Below, one piece after another: positions 8,592 to 33,600 of a DNA stretch of 34,379 nt. Made by a program: the position numbers and the translations under genes. Within the stretch, counting starts at the first letter, position 1; each line of letters opens with the position of its first letter. Where the stretch lies: IMG/VR virus record IMGVR_UViG_2778261181_000004; one strand, given 5' to 3'. The DNA comes from a virus (Duplodnaviria > Heunggongvirae > Uroviricota > Caudoviricetes). The notes beneath the pieces are model-generated. The model saw only the letters and a program-made list of their open reading frames with translations. It did no database searches and had not been told where the DNA came from.

Positions 8592-9218
8592 CTAGAGTTC
8601 GTATTGAACTCCTTTGACTACACCAATGATGAGGCAATTACCATTGATCGGGATGTTGGGGTACCGGGGATTTAATGGCACTAAAAACTTTTGAGGGCCA
8701 TCGATAACTAATTTTTTTACTGTGGCTTCGTTTGTTCCATCAAGTCTAGCGATGACTATTTTTCCATGCCGGGGTTCTGCATCAGGATCTACAATCACTG
8801 TTGCGCCTTCTGGTATTGTTGGGAGGCCGTTAGGGTTAGTCATGGAGTCGCCTTTAACCTCCAATGCAAATGAGTTATCACCAATCTTTAATGATGTATC
8901 TACCCACTTGTCTACTTCACTAAACACTTCTGCTGTCCTGCACTCAGTAAACTGCCCAGCCTGAACCCACGAGATTACAGGAACTCTGCGCATGTTTGTG
9001 ACGAGTTTGCCTTCAAACTCCGCACCATAAAGAATGTAATCTATTGACGTATTGAAGAACTTCGCTAATTTTGAAAGTGCTTCCCCACCAGGGACATTGA
9101 TGTCTTTCTCCCAGTACCCCACAGCAACGTCACTTACTCCACAAAATTTACCCAATTCTTTCTGGGACGTTCTGGTAACTCTTCTCAGAGCTTTTATACG
9201 CTGACCAACCGTTTCCAT
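8592..9218 (-). CDS. cI-like prophage repressor (N-terminal HTH plus C-terminal S24 LexA-like autopeptidase domain)
   Basis: N-terminal HTH (QKELGKFCGVSDVAVGYWEK); C-terminal domain with GDSM active-site Ser motif; divergent from a cro-like gene. Confidence 0.85.
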   Translation of the reverse strand: METVGQRIKALRRVTRTSQKELGKFCGVSDVAVGYWEKDINVPGGEALSKLAKFFNTSIDYILYGAEFEGKLVTNMRRVPVISWVQAGQFTECRTAEVFSEVDKWVDTSLKIGDNSFALEVKGDSMTNPNGLPTIPEGATVIVDPDAEPRHGKIVIARLDGTNEATVKKLVIDGPQKFLVPLNPRYPNIPINGNCLIIGVVKGVQYEL

Positions 9219-9315
9219 AGGAGCACCATTTCTTTAATTACTAAGTAATCTTAGTTTTTATTGACCTAAGATAGATTGATAATTAACATCTAATAAAACT
9301 TAGTTTGGAGGGCAT
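9219..9315. promoter_or_regulatory. Right operator/promoter region (oR / pR / pRM analogue)
   Basis: Inverted repeat ACTAAGTAATCTTAGT at 9240-9255; CTTAGTT copies at 9250-9256 and 9299-9305; candidate -35 TTGACC (9261-9266) and -10 TAACAT (9284-9289); GGAGGG RBS before the cro-like ATG. Confidence 0.5.
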
Positions 9316-10482: not shown

Positions 10483-11475
10483 ATGAGCCTGTTAATGACA
10501 TCCCAGCCCATTGTGATAAATCGTGATCTTGCATGCCGTATTGGTCTGAATGAGGCAATTGTGTTGCAGCAGCTTCATTACTGGCTGAATGAAACGAATT
10601 CCGGCACTGAGCATGGCGGAATTCGCTGGGTTTATAACACGACAGAACAGTGGCTGGAGCAGTTTCCGTTCTGGTCAGAGTCCACTCTGAAACGCACATT
10701 TGCAAGCCTGAAATCACTTGGGGTTTTGCGTCGCGAGCAACTCAATAAATCGAAGCGTGACATGACCAACTTCTACACGATCAACTATGAAAGTGAGCTT
10801 CTAGAAGAGGTCAAAGTGAACGAATCCATCAGGTCAAAATGCACTTCTCCATCGGGTCAAAGTGACCTGATGGATGGGCGCAAAATGACACGATCCATTG
10901 GTTCAAAACGACACGCTGTCATCGGGTCAAAATGGCCCAATGATCTTACAGAGAATACAACAGAGATTACTACAGAGAATAAAACCTCTTCTCGTCCGGA
11001 CGCTTCGCAACCGGACACGCAGATGGCTGAACAGGATTTTTTAACTCGCCATCCTGATGCGGTTGTATTCAGCCCTAAAAAGCGCCAGTGGGGAACGCAG
11101 GATGATTTGACCTGCGCACAGTGGCTCTGGAAAAAAATCATCGCTCTGTACGAGCAGGCCGCCGAATGTGACGGCGAAGTGGTACGTCCTAAAGAACCGA
11201 ACTGGACAGCCTGGGCAAACGAAATTCGCCTGATGTGTGTACAGGATGGGCGTACTCACAAACAAATCTGCGAGATGTACAGCCGCGTCAGCCGCGATCC
11301 GTTCTGGTGCCGTAACGTGCTCAGCCCGTCGAAGCTGCGGGAAAAATGGGATGAGCTTTCCCTGCGCTTATCGCCGTCCGTCAGCACGCACACAGAAAAA
11401 CGCGAAGACCCGTACTTCAAAGCCAGTTACGACAATGTGGACTACAGCCAGATCCCGGCAGGATTCAGGGGGTGA
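10483..11475 (+). CDS. Replication initiation protein, lambda O-like, with the origin embedded in the gene
   Basis: Position after the cII-like gene; internal iteron array and adjacent AT-rich tract; AGAGG RBS. Confidence 0.7.
   Translation: MSLLMTSQPIVINRDLACRIGLNEAIVLQQLHYWLNETNSGTEHGGIRWVYNTTEQWLEQFPFWSESTLKRTFASLKSLGVLRREQLNKSKRDMTNFYTINYESELLEEVKVNESIRSKCTSPSGQSDLMDGRKMTRSIGSKRHAVIGSKWPNDLTENTTEITTENKTSSRPDASQPDTQMAEQDFLTRHPDAVVFSPKKRQWGTQDDLTCAQWLWKKIIALYEQAAECDGEVVRPKEPNWTAWANEIRLMCVQDGRTHKQICEMYSRVSRDPFWCRNVLSPSKLREKWDELSLRLSPSVSTHTEKREDPYFKASYDNVDYSQIPAGFRG
10805..10940 (+). repeat. Origin iterons: about six direct repeats of a GGTCAAA(A/G)TG-type core
   Basis: Cores at about 10809, 10830, 10855, 10878, 10901 and 10925 (spacing 21-25 bp), followed by an AT-rich ACAGAGA-repeat tract at 10941-10990. 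Confidence 0.6.
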
Positions 11476-11477
11476 TC

Positions 11478-11966
11478 ATGAGTCTTTTGAATGAAGCTCA
11501 GAAATTCATTGAAGCCCATCCGGGGTGTACTTCCGGAGACATTGCGGATGCTTTTGCAGGTTACTCACGGCAGCGCGTTCTGCAGTCAGCAAGCAAGTTA
11601 CGTCAGAGTGGGCGTGTGGCTCACCGTTGTGAAGGAGATACACGCAGACATTTCCCACGCCTGACTGAGAGAGCGCAGGAGCCGGAACCACAACCAGTTC
11701 GTGAAACCAGACCTGTGCGCAATTTCTATGTCGGCACTAACGATCCCCGGGTGATTTTGTGCCTGACCCGCCAGGCTGAAGAACTGGAGTCCAAGGGCTT
11801 ATACCGTCGTGCTGCAACCGTGTGGATGGCGGCATTCCGTGAAAGCCACTCCCAGTCAGAACGAAACAATTTTCTGGCGCGCCGTGAGCGGTGCTTACGG
11901 AAAAGCAGCAAGCGCGCTGCATCGGGTGAAGAGTGGTATCTGTCAGGGAATTACGTGGGGGCTTAA
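11478..11966 (+). CDS. YfdN-like protein; C-terminal region resembles PerC/ANR-type regulators (tentative)
   Basis: ATG 11478 after AGGGGGTG, overlapping the O-like stop; C-terminal LTRQAEELESKGLYRRAATVWMAAF motif; sits where lambda P would be. Confidence 0.5.
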   Translation: MSLLNEAQKFIEAHPGCTSGDIADAFAGYSRQRVLQSASKLRQSGRVAHRCEGDTRRHFPRLTERAQEPEPQPVRETRPVRNFYVGTNDPRVILCLTRQAEELESKGLYRRAATVWMAAFRESHSQSERNNFLARRERCLRKSSKRAASGEEWYLSGNYVGA

Positions 11967-12619
11967 TGAGTAATAAATATTGCCAGGCGCTGGTGGAACT
12001 GCGGAACAAACCAGCCCATGAACTGAAGGAAGTGGGCGATCAGTGGCGCACGCCGGACAACATTTTCTGGGGAATTAACACCCTGTTTGGCCCGTTTGTT
12101 CTGGATCTGTTCACTGACGGTGATAACGCCAAATGTGCCGCGTATTACACGGCGGAAGATAACGCGCTGGCGCATGACTGGTCAGAACGTCTTGCGGAGC
12201 TTAAAGGTGCTGCCTTTGGTAATCCCCCATACAGCCGCGCCAGTCAGCATGAGGGGCAATACATCACCGGCATGCGTTACATCATGAAACATACCAGTGC
12301 CATGCGTGATAAGGGCGGGCGCTATGTTTTCCTGATCAAAGCTGCCACCAGCGAAGTGTGGTGGCCGGAAGATGCGGACCATATTGCTTTTATTCGCGGG
12401 CGTATTGGTTTTGAACTGCCTGCCTGGTTTATCCCGAAGGATGAGAAGCAGGTGCCGACAGGAGCTTTCTTCGCTGGTGCTATTGCTGTTTTCGACAAGA
12501 CCTGGAAGGGACCGGCAATCAGCTACATCGGGCGCGATGAACTTGAGGCATGTGGTGAAGCCTTTCTGGTGCAGGTTCGCCAGCAGGCGGAAAAACTGGT
12601 CAGGGAGATGGCAGCATGA
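11966..12619 (+). CDS. Phage Dam-like N6-adenine DNA methyltransferase
   Basis: Catalytic NPPY motif (FGNPPYS); TAATG overlap with the upstream stop; typical nin-region location. Confidence 0.75.
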   Translation: MSNKYCQALVELRNKPAHELKEVGDQWRTPDNIFWGINTLFGPFVLDLFTDGDNAKCAAYYTAEDNALAHDWSERLAELKGAAFGNPPYSRASQHEGQYITGMRYIMKHTSAMRDKGGRYVFLIKAATSEVWWPEDADHIAFIRGRIGFELPAWFIPKDEKQVPTGAFFAGAIAVFDKTWKGPAISYIGRDELEACGEAFLVQVRQQAEKLVREMAA

Positions 12620-12942
12620 CGACGTTAACTCAATGCCAGCAGCAGGTGCTGGATATGCTGATTTCTTACCAGAAAGAACGTGGCTTCCCGCCAACCAATC
12701 AGGAGGTGGCAACCATGCTGGGATACCGTTCAGTGAATGCAGCGGTGGAGCATCTTCGCGCACTGGAGAAAAAAGGCGTCATTACGATAAAGCGTGGCGT
12801 GGCCCGGGGGATAACGCTTCATACCGCAGTGAAGGACGACGACAGAGAGGCGGTCGGGATTATCCGCTCACTGCTTGCCGGTGAGGAAAACGCAAGGCTG
12901 CGTGCAACCCACTGGTTACATGAGAGGGACCTGAAAGTATGA
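12616..12942 (+). CDS. LexA DNA-binding-domain-like protein lacking the S24 autopeptidase domain
   Basis: N-terminal 70 aa (QQQVLDMLISYQKERGFPPTNQEVATMLGYRSVNAAVEHLRALEKKGVI) closely parallels the LexA N-terminal winged helix; protein ends after about 108 aa. Confidence 0.7.
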   Translation: MTTLTQCQQQVLDMLISYQKERGFPPTNQEVATMLGYRSVNAAVEHLRALEKKGVITIKRGVARGITLHTAVKDDDREAVGIIRSLLAGEENARLRATHWLHERDLKV

Positions 12943-13328
12943 AGCTGATCCTGCCTTTTCCGCCCAGCGTGAACACGTACTGGCGACATCCCAACAAAGG
13001 GGCGTTTGCTGGTAAGAGCCTGATAAGCGCGGCGGGGCGAAAATTCCAGAGCGCGGCGTGCGCAGCAATAGTTGAGCAGTTACGTCGTCTGCCAAAACCA
13101 ACGTCGGCACCTGCTTCAGTGGAGATCGTGTTGTTTCCTCCGGATAACCGGATCCGCGATCTGGACAACTATAACAAGGCGCTGTTTGACGCCCTGACCC
13201 ACGCGGGTGTGTGGGAAGACGACAGTCAGGTGAAAAGAATGCTGGTGGAGTGGGGACCGGTTATCCCGGAAGGGAAGGTCGAGATCACCATCAGTAAGTA
13301 CGAGAAAACGGCGGGTGCAGCCGCCTGA
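12939..13328 (+). CDS. rusA: RusA-family Holliday junction resolvase
   Basis: ATGA overlap with the upstream gene; motif pattern LPFPPSVNTYWRH ... DLDNYNKALFDALT ... WEDDSQV matches RusA. Confidence 0.8.
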   Translation: MKLILPFPPSVNTYWRHPNKGAFAGKSLISAAGRKFQSAACAAIVEQLRRLPKPTSAPASVEIVLFPPDNRIRDLDNYNKALFDALTHAGVWEDDSQVKRMLVEWGPVIPEGKVEITISKYEKTAGAAA

Positions 13329-16716: not shown

Positions 16717-16866
16717 TGGCGGTTTCCTGCTGTGAAAATGGGCGGCTGGTGGGTGTTGGTAGCACCTGCCAGCCATTCGCTCATGCTTACTGGTCACAAG
16801 CGAACCACGGCCCACTGCTTTAGCGCAAAAGCAGAGTGAGCCTACCAGAGTTACGCTTACTGATCC

Positions 16867-17919
16867 ATGAAAAATACTGTAAAAATAAACAGTGTTGATT
16901 TAATCAACGCTGATTGCCTGCATTTTATTCAGTCCCTGCCTGATGATTCCATTGACCTGATTGTTACCGATCCGCCGTACTTCAAGGTGAAACCCAACGG
17001 TTGGGACAATCAGTGGAAAGTGGACGAAGATTACCTTAAGTGGCTGGACCACTGCCTGGCCCAGTTCTGGCGGGTGTTAAAACCTGCCGGAAGCCTTTAT
17101 CTGTTCTGTGGGCATCGCTTGGCATCTGATATTGAGATCATGATGCGTGAACGTTTCAACGTGCTTAACCATATCATCTGGGCGAAGCCGTCCGGACGTT
17201 GGAATGGGTGTAATAAAGAAAGTCTGCGCGCATATTTTCCTGCCACAGAGCGCGTTCTGTTTGCTGAACATTACCAGGGGCCATATCGCGGCAAAAGTGA
17301 CGGCTATGCAGCAAAAGAAAGGGAACTCAAACAGCACATAATGGCACCGCTGATATCGTATTTCAGGGATGCTCGTGCCGAACTGGGTATAACGGCAAAA
17401 CAAATTGCCGAAGCCACAGGTAAGAAAAATATGGTTTCCCACTGGTTTGGTGCCAGTCAGTGGCAGTTGCCGAATGAGGCTGACTATCGGAAGTTACAGG
17501 CACTGTTTTCCCGTATAGCGGCAGAGAAGTTTCAGGAACAACAACTGGAACAACCACACCACCAGCTGGTGGCATCTTATGATTCACTGAATCGCAAATA
17601 TTCTGAATTGCTGGATGAGTTTAAATCTCTCCGGCGCTATTTCTCCGTATCAGTCTCCGTGCCTTATACCGATGTCTGGATGCATAAACCCGTTCAGTTC
17701 TACCCGGGGAAACATCCGTGTGAGAAACCGGCGGATATGCTCAGGCAAATAATCAATGCCAGTAGTCGACCAGGTGATCTGGTTGCTGATTTTTTTATGG
17801 GATCCGGTTCCACAATAAAAGCAGCAATGGCGCTGGGGCGTCGGGCCTTAGGTGTTGAGCTTGAGTCAGAGCGGTTTAACCAGACAGTGACAGAGATAAA
17901 CGAGCTGGTGGGGAAATAA
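16867..17919 (+). CDS. Orphan beta-class DNA methyltransferase (N6-adenine or N4-cytosine)
   Basis: DPPY motif near the N-terminus (LIVTDPPYF) and AdoMet-binding FxGxG near the C-terminus (DFFMGSGST); no adjacent restriction endonuclease gene. Confidence 0.8.
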
Positions 17920-21683: not shown

Positions 21684-23783
21684 ATGGGTTTTTCATCAGC
21701 CCGAAATTTGGGAAGGGACATATCGGCAGGATTTTCCCCACCACGTCGCATGCCGATTTCGGAGGCTGTTAAAAAATTCATGCGTGTTCCCAAGGGGGCT
21801 GGTAACTCGGTGCCATGGGATCCTGAACTGACACCCTACATCATTGAGCCCATGAACTGCCTGGCATCGCGTGAATACGATGCGGTGATTTTTGTTGGTC
21901 CTGCGCGAACAGGGAAGACCATTGGTCTGATCGATGGATGGATTGTCTATACCATCGTTTGCGATCCTTCGGACATGCTCGTTGTGCAGATGACCGAAGA
22001 TAAGGCCCGCGAGCATTCTAAAAAGCGCCTCGACAGAACGTTCAGAAGCAGTGCGGCGGTAAAGAAAAGAATGAGTCCACGTCGTAACGACAATAATGTC
22101 CATGATAAGACGTTCAGGGATGGCTCGTTCCTTAAAATTGGTTGGCCCTCGGTCAACATTATGTCGTCGTCGGATTACCGGTTTGTCGCCTTAACCGATT
22201 ACGACCGTTTTCCGGAGAATATCGATAGCGAGGGTGATGGTTTCTCCCTGGCCTCAAAACGTACCACCACATTTATGTCCGCCGGGATGACTCTGGTGGA
22301 GAGCTCGCCGGGACGTGACATCTGCGACAGCAAATGGCGACGTAAGTCGCCTCATGAAGCGCCACCGACGACTGGTATTCTTTCCCTTTACAATCGTGGT
22401 GACCGCCGCCGCTGGTACTGGCCATGTCCGCACTGCGGTGAATATTTTCAGCCAGCCATGGATACCATGACCGGCTACCGTAATGAACCGGATCCCTTTA
22501 AAGCCAGTGAGGCGGCGTATCTACTTTGCCCGCACTGCAGCGGCATTATCACTGCGGAGAAAAAGCGTGAGCTCAATAGTGCAGGAGTCTGGTTGCGTGA
22601 AGGTCAGGTCATTGATCGTAACGGCAACGTTTCCGGTGAACCGCGCCGCTCCCGTATCGCCAGTTTCTGGATGGAAGGGCCAGCTGCTGCGTATCAGACC
22701 TGGGCGCAACTGGTTTACAAATTACTGACTGCAGAACAGGAGTATGAAGCGACAGGAAGCGAAGAAACACTCAGGGCGGTTATCAATACCGACTGGGGAT
22801 TACCTTATCTTCCCCGCGCCAGCATGGAGCAACGAAAAAGTGAACTGCTTGAGCAGCGGGCAGAGCCAGTTCCTTCCCGCAGTGTGCCGGATGGCGTTAA
22901 TTTCCTTGTGGCGACAGTGGATGTGCAGGCGGGACGTCATCGCCGTTTTGTGGTTCAGGTAACGGGCTATGGCAGCCGTGGCGAACGCTGGATTATTGAT
23001 CGTTACAACATCACGCAGTCATTGCGCGGTGACAGCGACGGGGAGAGCCAGCGAATTGATCCGGCCAGCTATCCGGAAGACTGGGATGTCCTGCTGACGG
23101 ATGTTTTTCATAAAAGCTGGCCGCTGGCCTCCGATCCTTCTCAACAAATGCGACTGATGGCAATGGCGGTGGACTCCGGCGGTGAAGACGGGGTCACTGA
23201 TAATGCCTATAAATTCTGGCGTCGTTGCCGTCGTGATGGCCTTGGTAAACGTATTTACCTGTTTAAGGGCGACAGCATCCGGCGCGCAAAACTGATCACC
23301 CGTACATTCCCTGATAACACCGGACGAACGGGCCGACGGGCGCAGGCCGCAGGTGATGTACCGCTCTGGCTTCTTCAGACGGATGACCTGAAAGACCGGG
23401 TGAATAACGCGTTATGGCGTGACTCGCCAGGTCCCGGCTATGTGCATTTCCCTGACTGGCTGGGGAGCTGGTTTTACGACGAACTGACGTATGAAGAGCG
23501 GAGCAGTGACGGGAAATGGAGTAAGCCGGGTCGCGGTGCCAACGAAGCTTTTGACCTGATGGTGTATGCCGAGGCTCTGGTCATTCTGCATGGATACGAA
23601 AAGATCCGCTGGCCGGATGCACCGGAGTGGGCGAGCCGGGAAACCTGGCTGGAGTGTGTCCAGGACAGTACCGAACCGTCATCCTCACCGGAACCGGTAT
23701 CCACGCCTGTTAAAAAACAAAAACGGAAGAAAACAGTAACTGACGATGTTAACCCCTGGCTGACTTCCGGAGGATGGTTATGA
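21684..23783 (+). CDS. Terminase large subunit (lambda gpA family)
   Basis: 699 aa; Walker A-like GPARTGKT; AGGAGG RBS; size and position as lambda A. Confidence 0.85.
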   Translation: MGFSSARNLGRDISAGFSPPRRMPISEAVKKFMRVPKGAGNSVPWDPELTPYIIEPMNCLASREYDAVIFVGPARTGKTIGLIDGWIVYTIVCDPSDMLVVQMTEDKAREHSKKRLDRTFRSSAAVKKRMSPRRNDNNVHDKTFRDGSFLKIGWPSVNIMSSSDYRFVALTDYDRFPENIDSEGDGFSLASKRTTTFMSAGMTLVESSPGRDICDSKWRRKSPHEAPPTTGILSLYNRGDRRRWYWPCPHCGEYFQPAMDTMTGYRNEPDPFKASEAAYLLCPHCSGIITAEKKRELNSAGVWLREGQVIDRNGNVSGEPRRSRIASFWMEGPAAAYQTWAQLVYKLLTAEQEYEATGSEETLRAVINTDWGLPYLPRASMEQRKSELLEQRAEPVPSRSVPDGVNFLVATVDVQAGRHRRFVVQVTGYGSRGERWIIDRYNITQSLRGDSDGESQRIDPASYPEDWDVLLTDVFHKSWPLASDPSQQMRLMAMAVDSGGEDGVTDNAYKFWRRCRRDGLGKRIYLFKGDSIRRAKLITRTFPDNTGRTGRRAQAAGDVPLWLLQTDDLKDRVNNALWRDSPGPGYVHFPDWLGSWFYDELTYEERSSDGKWSKPGRGANEAFDLMVYAEALVILHGYEKIRWPDAPEWASRETWLECVQDSTEPSSSPEPVSTPVKKQKRKKTVTDDVNPWLTSGGWL

Positions 23784-30689: not shown

Positions 30690-33600
30690 TTTGGGGATTG
30701 ATGCGGCAGAGTTTAAAAATGAAATTCCCCGTATCAAAAACCTTCTGAATGGTGCAGCCAGCGATGCAGAACGGTCTTCTGCCCGTATGCAGCGTTTTAT
30801 GGAGCGTCAGACTCAGGCCGCCCGGCAGACAATGCAGGCGGCTTCTTCGGCTGCAACAGCCGCATCCGTCCATGCGCAGACGGTGGAGAAGAGCGCACAG
30901 GCTCATGAACGCATGGCCCGCGAGGTGGAGCAAACCCGCCAGCGTATGGAGGCACTGAGCCAGAAAATGCGCGAGGAACAGGCGCAGGCCATGGCTCTGG
31001 CGGAGGCTCAGGATAAAGCGGCTGCCGCGTTTTATCGTCAGATTGACAGTGTGAAACAGGCCAGTGCGGGGCTGCAGGAATTACAGCGTATTCAGCAGCA
31101 GATCCGACAGGCCAGAAACAGTGGCGGGATTGGTCAGCAGGATTATCTGGCGCTGATTTCTGAGGTTACGGCGAAAACCCGTGTTCTTACGCAGGCTGAG
31201 GCAGAGGCTACCCGACAGAAAGTGGCGTTTATCCGTCAGCTTAAAGAGCAGGCAACCCGCCAGAATCTTTCTTCTTCTGAGTTGCTTCGTGCTAAGGCTG
31301 CTCAGCTGGGGGTAAGCAGTGCTGCAGAAGTGTATATCCGCAAAATGGAGCAGGCAGGAAAAGCCACGCATTCGCTGGGTCTGAAAAGTGCAGCGGCCCG
31401 CCAGGAGATAGGCGTTCTGATAGGTGAACTGGCTCGCGGCAATTTAGGGGCGCTGAGGGGATCCGGGATAACGCTGGCTAACCGTGCCGGATGGATAGAC
31501 ACACTGATGTCACCGAAAGGCATGATGCTGGGCGGGGTTATTGGCGGTATTGCCGCGGCTGTCTATGGTCTGGGTAAAGCCTGGTATGACGGTCAGAAGG
31601 AGGGGGAAGAATTTAACCGCCAGCTGTCGCTGACGGGGCATTATGCCGGAGTCACTGCCGGGCAGCTGTGGACGCTCAGTCGTGCTATTTCCGGGAATGG
31701 TATCACGCAACATGCTGCAGCCGGTGCGCTGGCTCAGGTGGTGGGGAGTGGTGCATTTCGTGGAAACGATATCGGTATGGTGGCGAGAGCTGCCGCACAG
31801 ATGGAGCGATCGGTTGGCCAGTCGGTCAGCGATACCATAAGTCAGTTTAAGCGGCTGAAGGATGATCCTGTAAATGCCGCGAAGGCTCTGGACAATGAGC
31901 TGCATTTTCTTACTGCCACTCAGCTTGAGCAGATACGCGTCCTTGGGGAACAGGGGCGGTCCAGTGATGCGGCACGGATAGCCATGTCTGCACTGGCAGA
32001 GGAAACCAGTCGGCGTACTGCGGATATTGATAATAACCTCAATGCGCTGGGTAGTACGCTGCAAACCTTGTCTGACTGGTGGAAGCAGTTCTGGGATGCG
32101 GCCATGAATATTGGTCGTGAAGATTCGCTGGATGCGCAGATTGCCACTTTGCAGGAGAAAGTGTCGCGGGCGAAAAGACTCCCCTGGACGGCATCATCTT
32201 CTCAGGTTGAATACGATCAGCAGCGTCTTAACGATCTTCAGGAGAAAAAACGCCAGAAGGATTTGCAGGATGCAAAAGAGCAGGCAGAGCGGAATTATCA
32301 GGAGCAACAGAAACGCCGTAATGCTGAAAATGCTGCACTGAATCGGATGAATGAAACGGAAGCTGCACGACATCAGCGTGAAATTGCGCGTATTAATGCC
32401 ATGCAGTACGCCGATCAGGCTGTCAGGGATGCTGCGATACAACGTGAAAATGAACGTTACGAGAAAGCCCTGGCATCCGGTAAGAAAAAAACACGCGAAA
32501 CCCGTAATGATGAGGCCACCCGGTTATTGCTGCAGTACAGCCAGCAACAGGCACAGGTGGAAGGACAGATTGCTGCTGCAAGACAGTCAGCAGGCATTGC
32601 CACTGACAGGATGACAGAAGCGCATAAACAGCTTCTGGCTCTGCAGCAGCGCATCAGCGATCTGGACGGGAAAAAACTGACGGCAGATGAAAAGAGTGTG
32701 CTGGCCCGTAAAGATGAACTGATTCAGGCACTGACGCTGCTGGATGTAAAACAGCAGGAGCTTCAGAAACAGACGGCACTCAACGATCTGAAGAAAAAAA
32801 CAATTCAGCTGACCAGTCAACTGGCTGAAGAAGAGCGCGCTCAGCGTCAGCAACATGACCTGGATATCGCCACGGTGGGTATGGGTGATCAGCAGCGGCA
32901 GCGATATCAGGTACAACTGAGTCTTCGCCAGAAATACCAGCAACAGCTGGAGCAGTTGAGGCGGGATAGTGAGCAGAAAGGGACATATAACACGGATGAC
33001 TACAGAAAGGCCGAGCAGGCGCTGACGGAGAGCCTGAACCGACAACTGAATGAGAATCGCCGTTACTGGCAACAGCTTGAAATTGCTCAGGGTGACTGGA
33101 AAAACGGAGTCCTGCGTGCACTCCAGAATGTCACTGAGAATGCGGATAACACAGCCGGGACAGTGGAACAGTTGTTCACGTCTGCGTTCAGTAGCATGAG
33201 TGACTGGCTGGCGACATTCTGTACTACAGGCAAACTCAATTTCAAATCCTTCACCTCTTCTGTGCTGTCAGATATGTCCAGAATCATGGCTCAGATAGCT
33301 TTAATGAAAGCGGTAAAAGGCATTGCTTCCGCGCTGCCTTTTGATTTTGTAGCTAATGCTGATGGCGGTGTTTATCAGTCGGCTGATTTGAGTCGCTACA
33401 GTGGCACGGTGGTTAACCGTCCGACGTTTTTTGCTTTTGCAAAAGGCGCGGGTGTGATGGGGGAAGCTGGACCTGAAGCCATTCTGCCACTGCGTCGTGG
33501 TGCTGACGGTAAGCTGGGGGTTGTGGCGGATATTGGTGGTTCAGGTATGGCGATGTTTGCCCCGCAGTACAACATCGAGATCAATAACGATGGCACGAAC

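Follow-up and report, generated by a model that had tools for sequence, protein, structure and literature searches.

What does a temperate phage do with a LexA repressor that has kept its DNA-binding domain but not the domain by which LexA cleaves itself? The question is raised by a small gene in IMG/VR virus record IMGVR_UViG_2778261181_000004 (Duplodnaviria; Heunggongvirae; Uroviricota; Caudoviricetes), a stretch of 34,379 nucleotides (the window, by which we mean the whole stretch analysed) that consists of Escherichia coli chromosome followed by a lambdoid prophage. An earlier note, made from the sequence alone, had placed a prophage gene at positions 12616-12942 on the plus strand, and this holds: the open reading frame is exact, encodes 108 amino acids, starts with ATG and is preceded by a GGGAG site. 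We find that its product is a LexA DNA-binding-domain homologue without a protease domain and that, as far as sequences and a predicted structure can tell, it belongs to an Enterobacteriaceae-wide prophage family, delimited here, which combines the LexA winged helix with a conserved two-helix tail and lacks the glutamate E44 of the LexA recognition helix. The parts of the gene and its product are these:

12603-12607, plus strand: ribosome-binding site GGGAG, read from the sequence, 8 nt before the ATG and within the 3' end of the upstream Dam methylase gene
12616-12942, plus strand: LexA-like coding sequence, 108 amino acids, ATG start
12616-12822, plus strand: LexA-type winged helix-turn-helix, residues 1-69, with three helices and a two-strand wing (PF01726, AlphaFold2 model, fit to 3jso)
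12730-12771, plus strand: recognition helix alpha-3, residues 39-52 (SVNAAVEHLRALEK), placed by alignments to LexA
12832-12924, plus strand: two-helix C-terminal tail, residues 73-103 (helices 73-88 and 93-103), modelled by AlphaFold2 with block values of the predicted local distance difference test (pLDDT) of about 90 and about 88
12871-12885, plus strand: the segment LLAGE, residues 86-90, aligned to VAAGE of LexA, which holds the Ala84-Gly85 cleavage site

The relationship to LexA was the core of the earlier note and is confirmed by profile, structure and pairwise comparison. The Pfam family LexA_DNA_bind (PF01726) is matched over profile positions 1-65 of 65 with 69 bits (cut-off 23.7; E 2.9e-19), the closest solved structures are those of E. 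coli LexA, 1lea and 1jhh (E about 1e-15), and the alignment with E. coli LexA that the earlier note had suggested, run with BLASTP, covers 90 residues at 43% identity (E 9e-22). The AlphaFold2 model of the 108-residue protein (pLDDT 83.6) has helices at residues 6-22, 28-35 and 40-52 and strands at 56-58 and 66-68, and its residues 1-68 fit DNA-bound LexA (3jso) with 0.9 A over 68 columns at about 50% identity. Pfam finds no Peptidase_S24 domain in the protein, which stops at residue 108, and the NCBIfam lexA equivalog TIGR00498 scores 71 bits, under its cut-off of 110.95, over model positions 1-91 of 203 only; the absence of the self-cleaving domain, likewise claimed before, is thus corroborated and implies that LexA-style self-cleavage does not take place. 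The full-length match is to phrog_362 (E 8.2e-59, positions 1-106 of 106), and PADLOC gives a marginal winged-helix match only. With E. coli LexA's N-terminal domain (1LEA, 3JSO) the protein shares the winged helix-turn-helix, the recognition helix, the RGI wing and an alignable hinge and cleavage segment. It differs from LexA in lacking the S24 peptidase and dimerisation domain, and with it Ser119 and Lys156, in having V for E44 and an unrelated two-helix tail, and, unlike the autoregulated LexA, in being phage-encoded and placed in an early lytic operon.

That no cleavage site is left, as the earlier note also stated, is right for function, there being no catalytic domain and no conserved Ala-Gly, and incomplete for descent. 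The alignment continues through the LexA hinge and sets A88-G89 opposite A84-G85 of LexA, and this hinge alignment, LLAGE against VAAGE included, points to descent from a lexA gene truncated just past the cleavage region. Relatives carry VG, AN, ERE, TRK or DDQ at the cleavage-site positions, so that Ala-Gly is not conserved, and the LLAGE segment is helical in the AlphaFold2 model; on these two grounds LLAGE was rejected as a functional cleavage or substrate-mimic site. Judged from the alignment, it is a vestige of descent from lexA and not a conserved cleavage site. Its resemblance to the cleavage-site strand of LexA is also what could speak for an action at the protein level, suggested in the earlier note, by which the phage protein would poison host LexA through mixed dimers or serve as a decoy for activated RecA (RecA*). 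However, the C-terminal domain by which LexA dimerises and contacts RecA* (PMC11442139) is absent here, and the AG motif, which falls in a predicted helix, is not conserved in the family. We therefore find no support for interference with host LexA and regard it as very improbable.

The tail is the part that sets the family apart. It is unmatched in LexA structures, is kept at 40-50% identity between genera and shows across relatives the pattern E78, I83, L86, L87, A97 (invariant), W, F, Y or L at position 100, and L101 (invariant). A search of 1.8 billion representative proteins returned 4554 relatives, which are mostly genuine LexAs, and among them a subset, mostly of about 105-135 residues, that matches the window protein end to end, tail included. 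These tail-bearing relatives come from Cronobacter, Kosakonia, Enterobacter, Cedecea, Klebsiella, Citrobacter, Salmonella and Hafnia, and every host of the family belongs to the Enterobacteriaceae; the window protein itself has I83, L86, L87, A97, W100 and L101, the conserved hydrophobic residues of the tail, and has lost E44. The tail is probably a module for dimerisation, a candidate replacement for the S24 domain. We infer this role, and no more than infer it, because LexA structures lack the tail and whole-length analogies are weak: compared with winged-helix repressors that have C-terminal dimerisation helices, the whole model gives a weak structural match only. BlaI/MecI-like Rv1846c (2G9W), MarR/MepR and MntR do have a winged helix followed by helices (template modelling scores of about 0.45-0.55), but with root-mean-square deviations of 7-11 A and no sequence relationship they offer an analogy for tail dimerisation only. 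Among the proteins returned by the representative search, several of 140-350 residues (P0128, P0129, P0148, P0150, P0151, P0154, P0159 and others) contain tandem pairs of LexA-type DNA-binding domains and may thus represent LexA-domain pseudo-dimers in one chain.

Could the gene be no more than the decaying, functionless remnant of a captured lexA gene? Genes of the nin region are usually dispensable and databases hold many truncated or frameshifted copies, which would fit such a remnant. Yet the family consists of intact open reading frames with the conserved tail in at least nine genera, at the same position, and the conservation of length, tail and position between genera argues for a functional protein. 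Within E. coli the gene is found in 2233 of 5426 complete genomes, mostly at 95-99% nucleotide identity, and in 2223 of them copies span at least 80% of its length; decay is hardly credible for such a gene. As a gene it is already known as an annotated family, and a truncated LexA encoded by a phage has been published before. RefSeq contains the identical protein as WP_000210147.1 ('LexA family protein'), and 50 phage records carry the gene, among them mEp460, SfV, SfII, SfIV, cdtI, 2H10, 15 phages encoding Shiga toxin (Stx) 2c and some Stx2a phages, in which it is annotated as 'LexA DNA binding domain protein', 'transcriptional repressor', 'LexA-like protein' or, wrongly, 'RecA-mediated autopeptidases'. 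A survey of Stx phages (PMC8136144) enters it under the name 'pham 237, LexA family transcriptional regulator, pfam01726' and has no experiments on its function. The lambdoid proteins of PHROG 362 with PF01726 only (mEp460_046, SfV orf42, those of cdtI and the Stx2c phages) are the window gene's own family, and the PHROG 362 phage copies have 95-98% DNA identity and the same neighbours, Dam upstream and rusA downstream.

The neighbourhood of the gene bears on when the protein would be made:

8592-9218, minus strand: gene of a CI-type S24 repressor
9261-9289: pR-like promoter candidate, with a CII-like gene and then replication genes beyond
11472-11966: open reading frame lying two genes upstream of the LexA-like gene, of 164 amino acids, in which a PerC transcriptional-activator domain is recognised (E 1.2e-9)
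11933-12619: Dam methylase gene, whose TGA stop at 12617-12619 overlaps the ATG of the LexA-like gene
12939-13328: rusA, whose start overlaps the stop of the LexA-like gene (ATGA, 12939-12942)

No promoter-like site was found on the plus strand from the pR candidate to the LexA-like gene, which makes the latter a gene of the early right operon, and ATGA overlaps of start and stop couple it to both the Dam methylase gene and rusA. Beyond rusA follow genes for a KilA-N protein, a DUF968/HNH protein, Q and a type II-like DNA methylase, and then the lysis and morphogenesis genes. Prophage proteins of the PerC/Pch type are known to control virulence genes of pathogenic E. coli strains. In the E. 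coli records listed, the LexA-like gene stands between a phage Dam methylase gene and rusA, and each lineage examined has the order replication genes, optional methylases, LexA-like gene, rusA, an optional antirepressor-like gene (Rha/ANT or KilA-N), DUF968 and Q; this synteny is retained in Kosakonia-like, Enterobacter, Cedecea and Cronobacter prophages as well as in mEp460.

The position of rusA directly downstream (the two genes overlap by 4 bp in the window, L003 and L004-L006 and are separated by a short insert in L007 and L009) might suggest an accessory of recombination or replication, which would, for instance, target or modulate RusA or act at replicating phage DNA. DnaD_N and an O-like replication PHROG show weak similarity that points the same way, but both matches are marginal (E 0.16 and 0.009, respectively), many unrelated genes of lambdoid phages likewise keep their order, and the recognition helix retains the base-reading residues expected of a protein that binds operators sequence-specifically. 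We rate this explanation as improbable.

The reading we prefer, tentatively and at somewhat less than even confidence, is that of an early lytic DNA binder, resistant to RecA and dimerised by its tail, which recognises LexA-type operators and represses there when host LexA is gone. It would be a small sequence-specific DNA-binding protein descended from an enterobacterial lexA gene, with the tail of about 35 residues and two helices supplying dimerisation in place of the S24 domain. Since the gene lacks a promoter of its own and lies in the pR operon, the protein would be produced only on infection or after loss of the prophage repressor, at a time when host LexA is being destroyed. The SOS box of Enterobacteriaceae is CTGT-N8-ACAG, and the dimer would bind palindromes of this LexA type, or a close variant, and repress at them, and RecA* would be unable to displace it from these operators. 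Possible targets are host SOS promoters and phage cargo with SOS boxes, namely PanA/PanT, a DinI-like gene and the late-region DNA methylase.

The recognition helix speaks for this reading. Seven of nine positions are identical to E. coli LexA, including S39, N41, A42 and E45, to which a 2024 review (PMC11442139) ascribes most of the contacts that LexA makes with CTGT in the crystal structure 3JSO, whereas an older summary counts E44 among the contacts too (PMC3091678); we took the contact residues from such secondary sources, which disagree on E44. All four main contacts are present in the window protein and in five of the nine family lineages, and the wing motif R64-G65-I66 is invariant throughout the family. 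At position 44, however, the window protein has V where LexA has E (codon 12745-12747). As a control we used 80 genuine full-length lexA genes of gamma- and betaproteobacteria, obtained by scanning contigs with the family alignment, a scan that yielded nothing but genuine lexA genes, since the chosen pattern is also present in LexA. Helix 3 of these reads S-x-N-A-[AS]-E-[ED]-H-L, with E at position 44 in 79 and Q in one.

Strong SOS boxes in phages with the gene are counted for the preferred reading as well. The matrix used to score them, derived from 20 SOS boxes of E. coli, is a rough tool. In the window four sites, 1340-1359, 1363-1382, 1444-1463 and 16875-16894, reach 17.7-23.2 bits, the next best being at 9.8. 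All four carrier genomes scanned over their full length have such boxes at 17.7 bits or more (four in the window, four in mEp460, one in SfV and three in an Stx2c phage), as against one weak site in lambda, none above 14 bits in HK97 and two sites in phiP27 among non-carriers, a comparison of four with three genomes that share modules and hence too small to decide.

Several points weigh against the proposal. None of the nine lineages of the tail-bearing family has E at position 44, which is occupied by V, T, F, A, L or Y, and N41, A42 or E45 are also altered in some (P0090, P0125, P0168, P0244). The loss of E44 is a systematic change beside the reading head, which could alter specificity by shifting one base of the half-site, or could instead increase affinity by removing a negative charge. 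The isolated N-terminal domain of LexA binds operators weakly, so that the proposal depends wholly on the putative dimerisation by the tail. Within 6 kb of the related genes of Enterobacter, Cedecea and Cronobacter there is no SOS box, and phiP27, which is without the LexA-like gene, has SOS boxes all the same. The boxes therefore travel with cargo and not with the LexA-like gene: they accompany PanAT, the DinI-like gene, the methylase and one type of cI, commonly but with no specific link to the gene. A full-text literature search surfaced no functional study of the family, only the pham 237 entry and gp6 of phage GIL01, a truncated phage LexA with a different site that acts as an activator.

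This precedent leads to the chief competing explanation, a regulator of the gp6 kind that would act at its own, non-SOS operator, activate or repress a phage promoter and thereby time lytic expression. The gp6 protein of the Bacillus phage GIL01, the only truncated LexA of phage origin to have been characterised and 44% identical to the host LexA domain, binds GaCACAnnTGTGaC, a non-SOS palindrome overlapping the -35 element of the late promoter P3, and activates P3 (PMC6182141). Like the window protein it is phage-encoded, has a LexA DNA-binding domain without a protease domain and is expressed early in the lytic cycle (for the window gene, judged by operon position); it differs in belonging to a tectivirus, in its Bacillus-type LexA origin and in having no helical tail. 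The recognition helix of the window protein is of the gammaproteobacterial LexA type (SxNAAxEHL), which argues for a capture independent of gp6. The replacement of E44 in all nine lineages, with further recognition-helix changes in some, would suit an operator of its own, and so would the gene's conserved place, with rusA, the antirepressor gene, DUF968 and Q just downstream. On the other side stand the four main LexA contacts, intact as described above, and the late genes, which in these lambdoid phages are already under the Q antiterminator, whereas gp6 activates P3 at its own site. When five independent prophage lineages were searched for an operator in common (perfect palindromes with arms of 4-6 bp and spacers of 0-12 bp that recur in at least 3-5 of the five), shared palindromes turned up only within conserved coding sequence, a listing of palindromes across the window gave no stand-out candidate, and the late region downstream of Q holds no obvious one. 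Taken together, a gp6-like role is possible but rather doubtful.

The earlier note had further tied the gene to LexA-box-like sites at 1342-1380. The features around these sites, and the fourth box, are as follows:

1296-1323: perfect sigma-70 promoter TTGACA-16-TATAAT, with the sites 1340-1359, 1363-1382 and 1444-1463 beyond it
1466-1954: gene of a Panacea-domain antitoxin, downstream of the three SOS boxes
1977-2525: open reading frame of 182 amino acids without Pfam or PADLOC match, annotated as PanA/PanT in phage PhiR47_1
16875-16894: very strong SOS box TACTGTAAAAATAAACAGTG, overlapping codons 3-9 of the gene for the late-region DNA methylase (16867-17919)

The sites at 1340-1463 look convincingly like classic host-LexA operators of the PanA/PanT promoter, and of the 50 phage records that have the LexA-like gene no more than 3 contain this promoter; on this co-occurrence a functional tie of the gene to the 1342-1380 boxes was rejected, and the boxes are better seen as ordinary operators of host LexA. 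PanA/PanT itself, at the very end of the prophage, looks like SOS-inducible toxin-antitoxin cargo under tight LexA repression.

A further-reaching form of the preferred reading would make the protein a RecA-proof stand-in for LexA, which after induction or infection silences again the SOS-box promoters that have escaped host LexA; its targets would be the SOS genes of the host, functions under LexA control in rival prophages and colicin plasmids, and the phage's own cargo (PanA/PanT, the DinI-like gene and the methylase). We consider it unlikely.

Further observations concern the boxes and the setting of the prophage. In the box at the methylase gene ACTGT and CAGT are invariant and the spacer is variable in phiNP, Flotzy, Stx2a_EH2201, phiP27 and the Hafnia phage yong2. 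The non-coding stretch of about 90 bp before it is unusually conserved and contains a palindrome (16815-16834); Rfam has no match to the region 16780-16894 and, indeed, none anywhere within the window. In mEp460 (L095), a DinI-like gene beside the integrase has two tandem SOS boxes (23255-23302) at its annotated promoter, and a similar pair is found near the record end of Stx2c_PV98-693 (L097, 49747-49794); by its boxes the DinI-like gene is a further, putatively SOS-controlled cargo in phages with the LexA-like gene. A near-perfect SOS box also lies within the cI of another immunity type, TACTGTTTTTACATACAGTA in mEp460 (31970-31989) and PhiR47_1 (L002, 6512-6531) and TACTGTTTATAAATACAGTA in the same type of cI in L003 (836-855). 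These boxes stand some 165-230 nt inside the cI reading frame, between the helix-turn-helix and S24 parts, are absent from the cI of the window and possibly represent an internal LexA-controlled promoter or a roadblock. Lambda (L098, 38660-38679) and HK97 (L099, 29694-29713) have in common a moderate, SOS-box-like site (TACTGGATCTATCAACAGGA) in the interval between cII and the replication gene, at 16.5 bits and, in HK97, 13.9 bits, which may be due to chance.

On the chromosomal side of the prophage, the window begins as follows:

1-708: DUF2713 gene, with the 5' end of dusA next

The prophage is inserted at this 5' end of dusA (window about 1040-1180), leaving a short dusA 5' remnant, and the match to prophage-free E. 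coli genomes, in which DUF2713 and dusA are annotated, ends at about 1174. In 75 complete genomes a single match spans at least 80% of window positions 700-1400, and these therefore appear to have the same dusA junction.

As an object the gene is nothing unusual among the annotated accessory genes that lambdoid prophages carry, and what it means for its hosts depends on what the protein binds. If the stand-in reading were true, the SOS response would become a short pulse under phage control, and a widespread layer of SOS regulation would have been overlooked, with the gene in about 40% of complete E. coli genomes, Stx2c phages included. If SOS boxes are bound at all, about two fifths of the sequenced E. 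coli strains, the serotype-converting phages of Shigella and the Stx2c phages would carry a LexA surrogate that RecA cannot remove. Such a surrogate could shape the duration of the SOS response in induced cells, the competition between co-resident prophages and the expression of SOS-controlled toxin-antitoxin and DinI-like cargo, possibly even the output of Shiga toxin.

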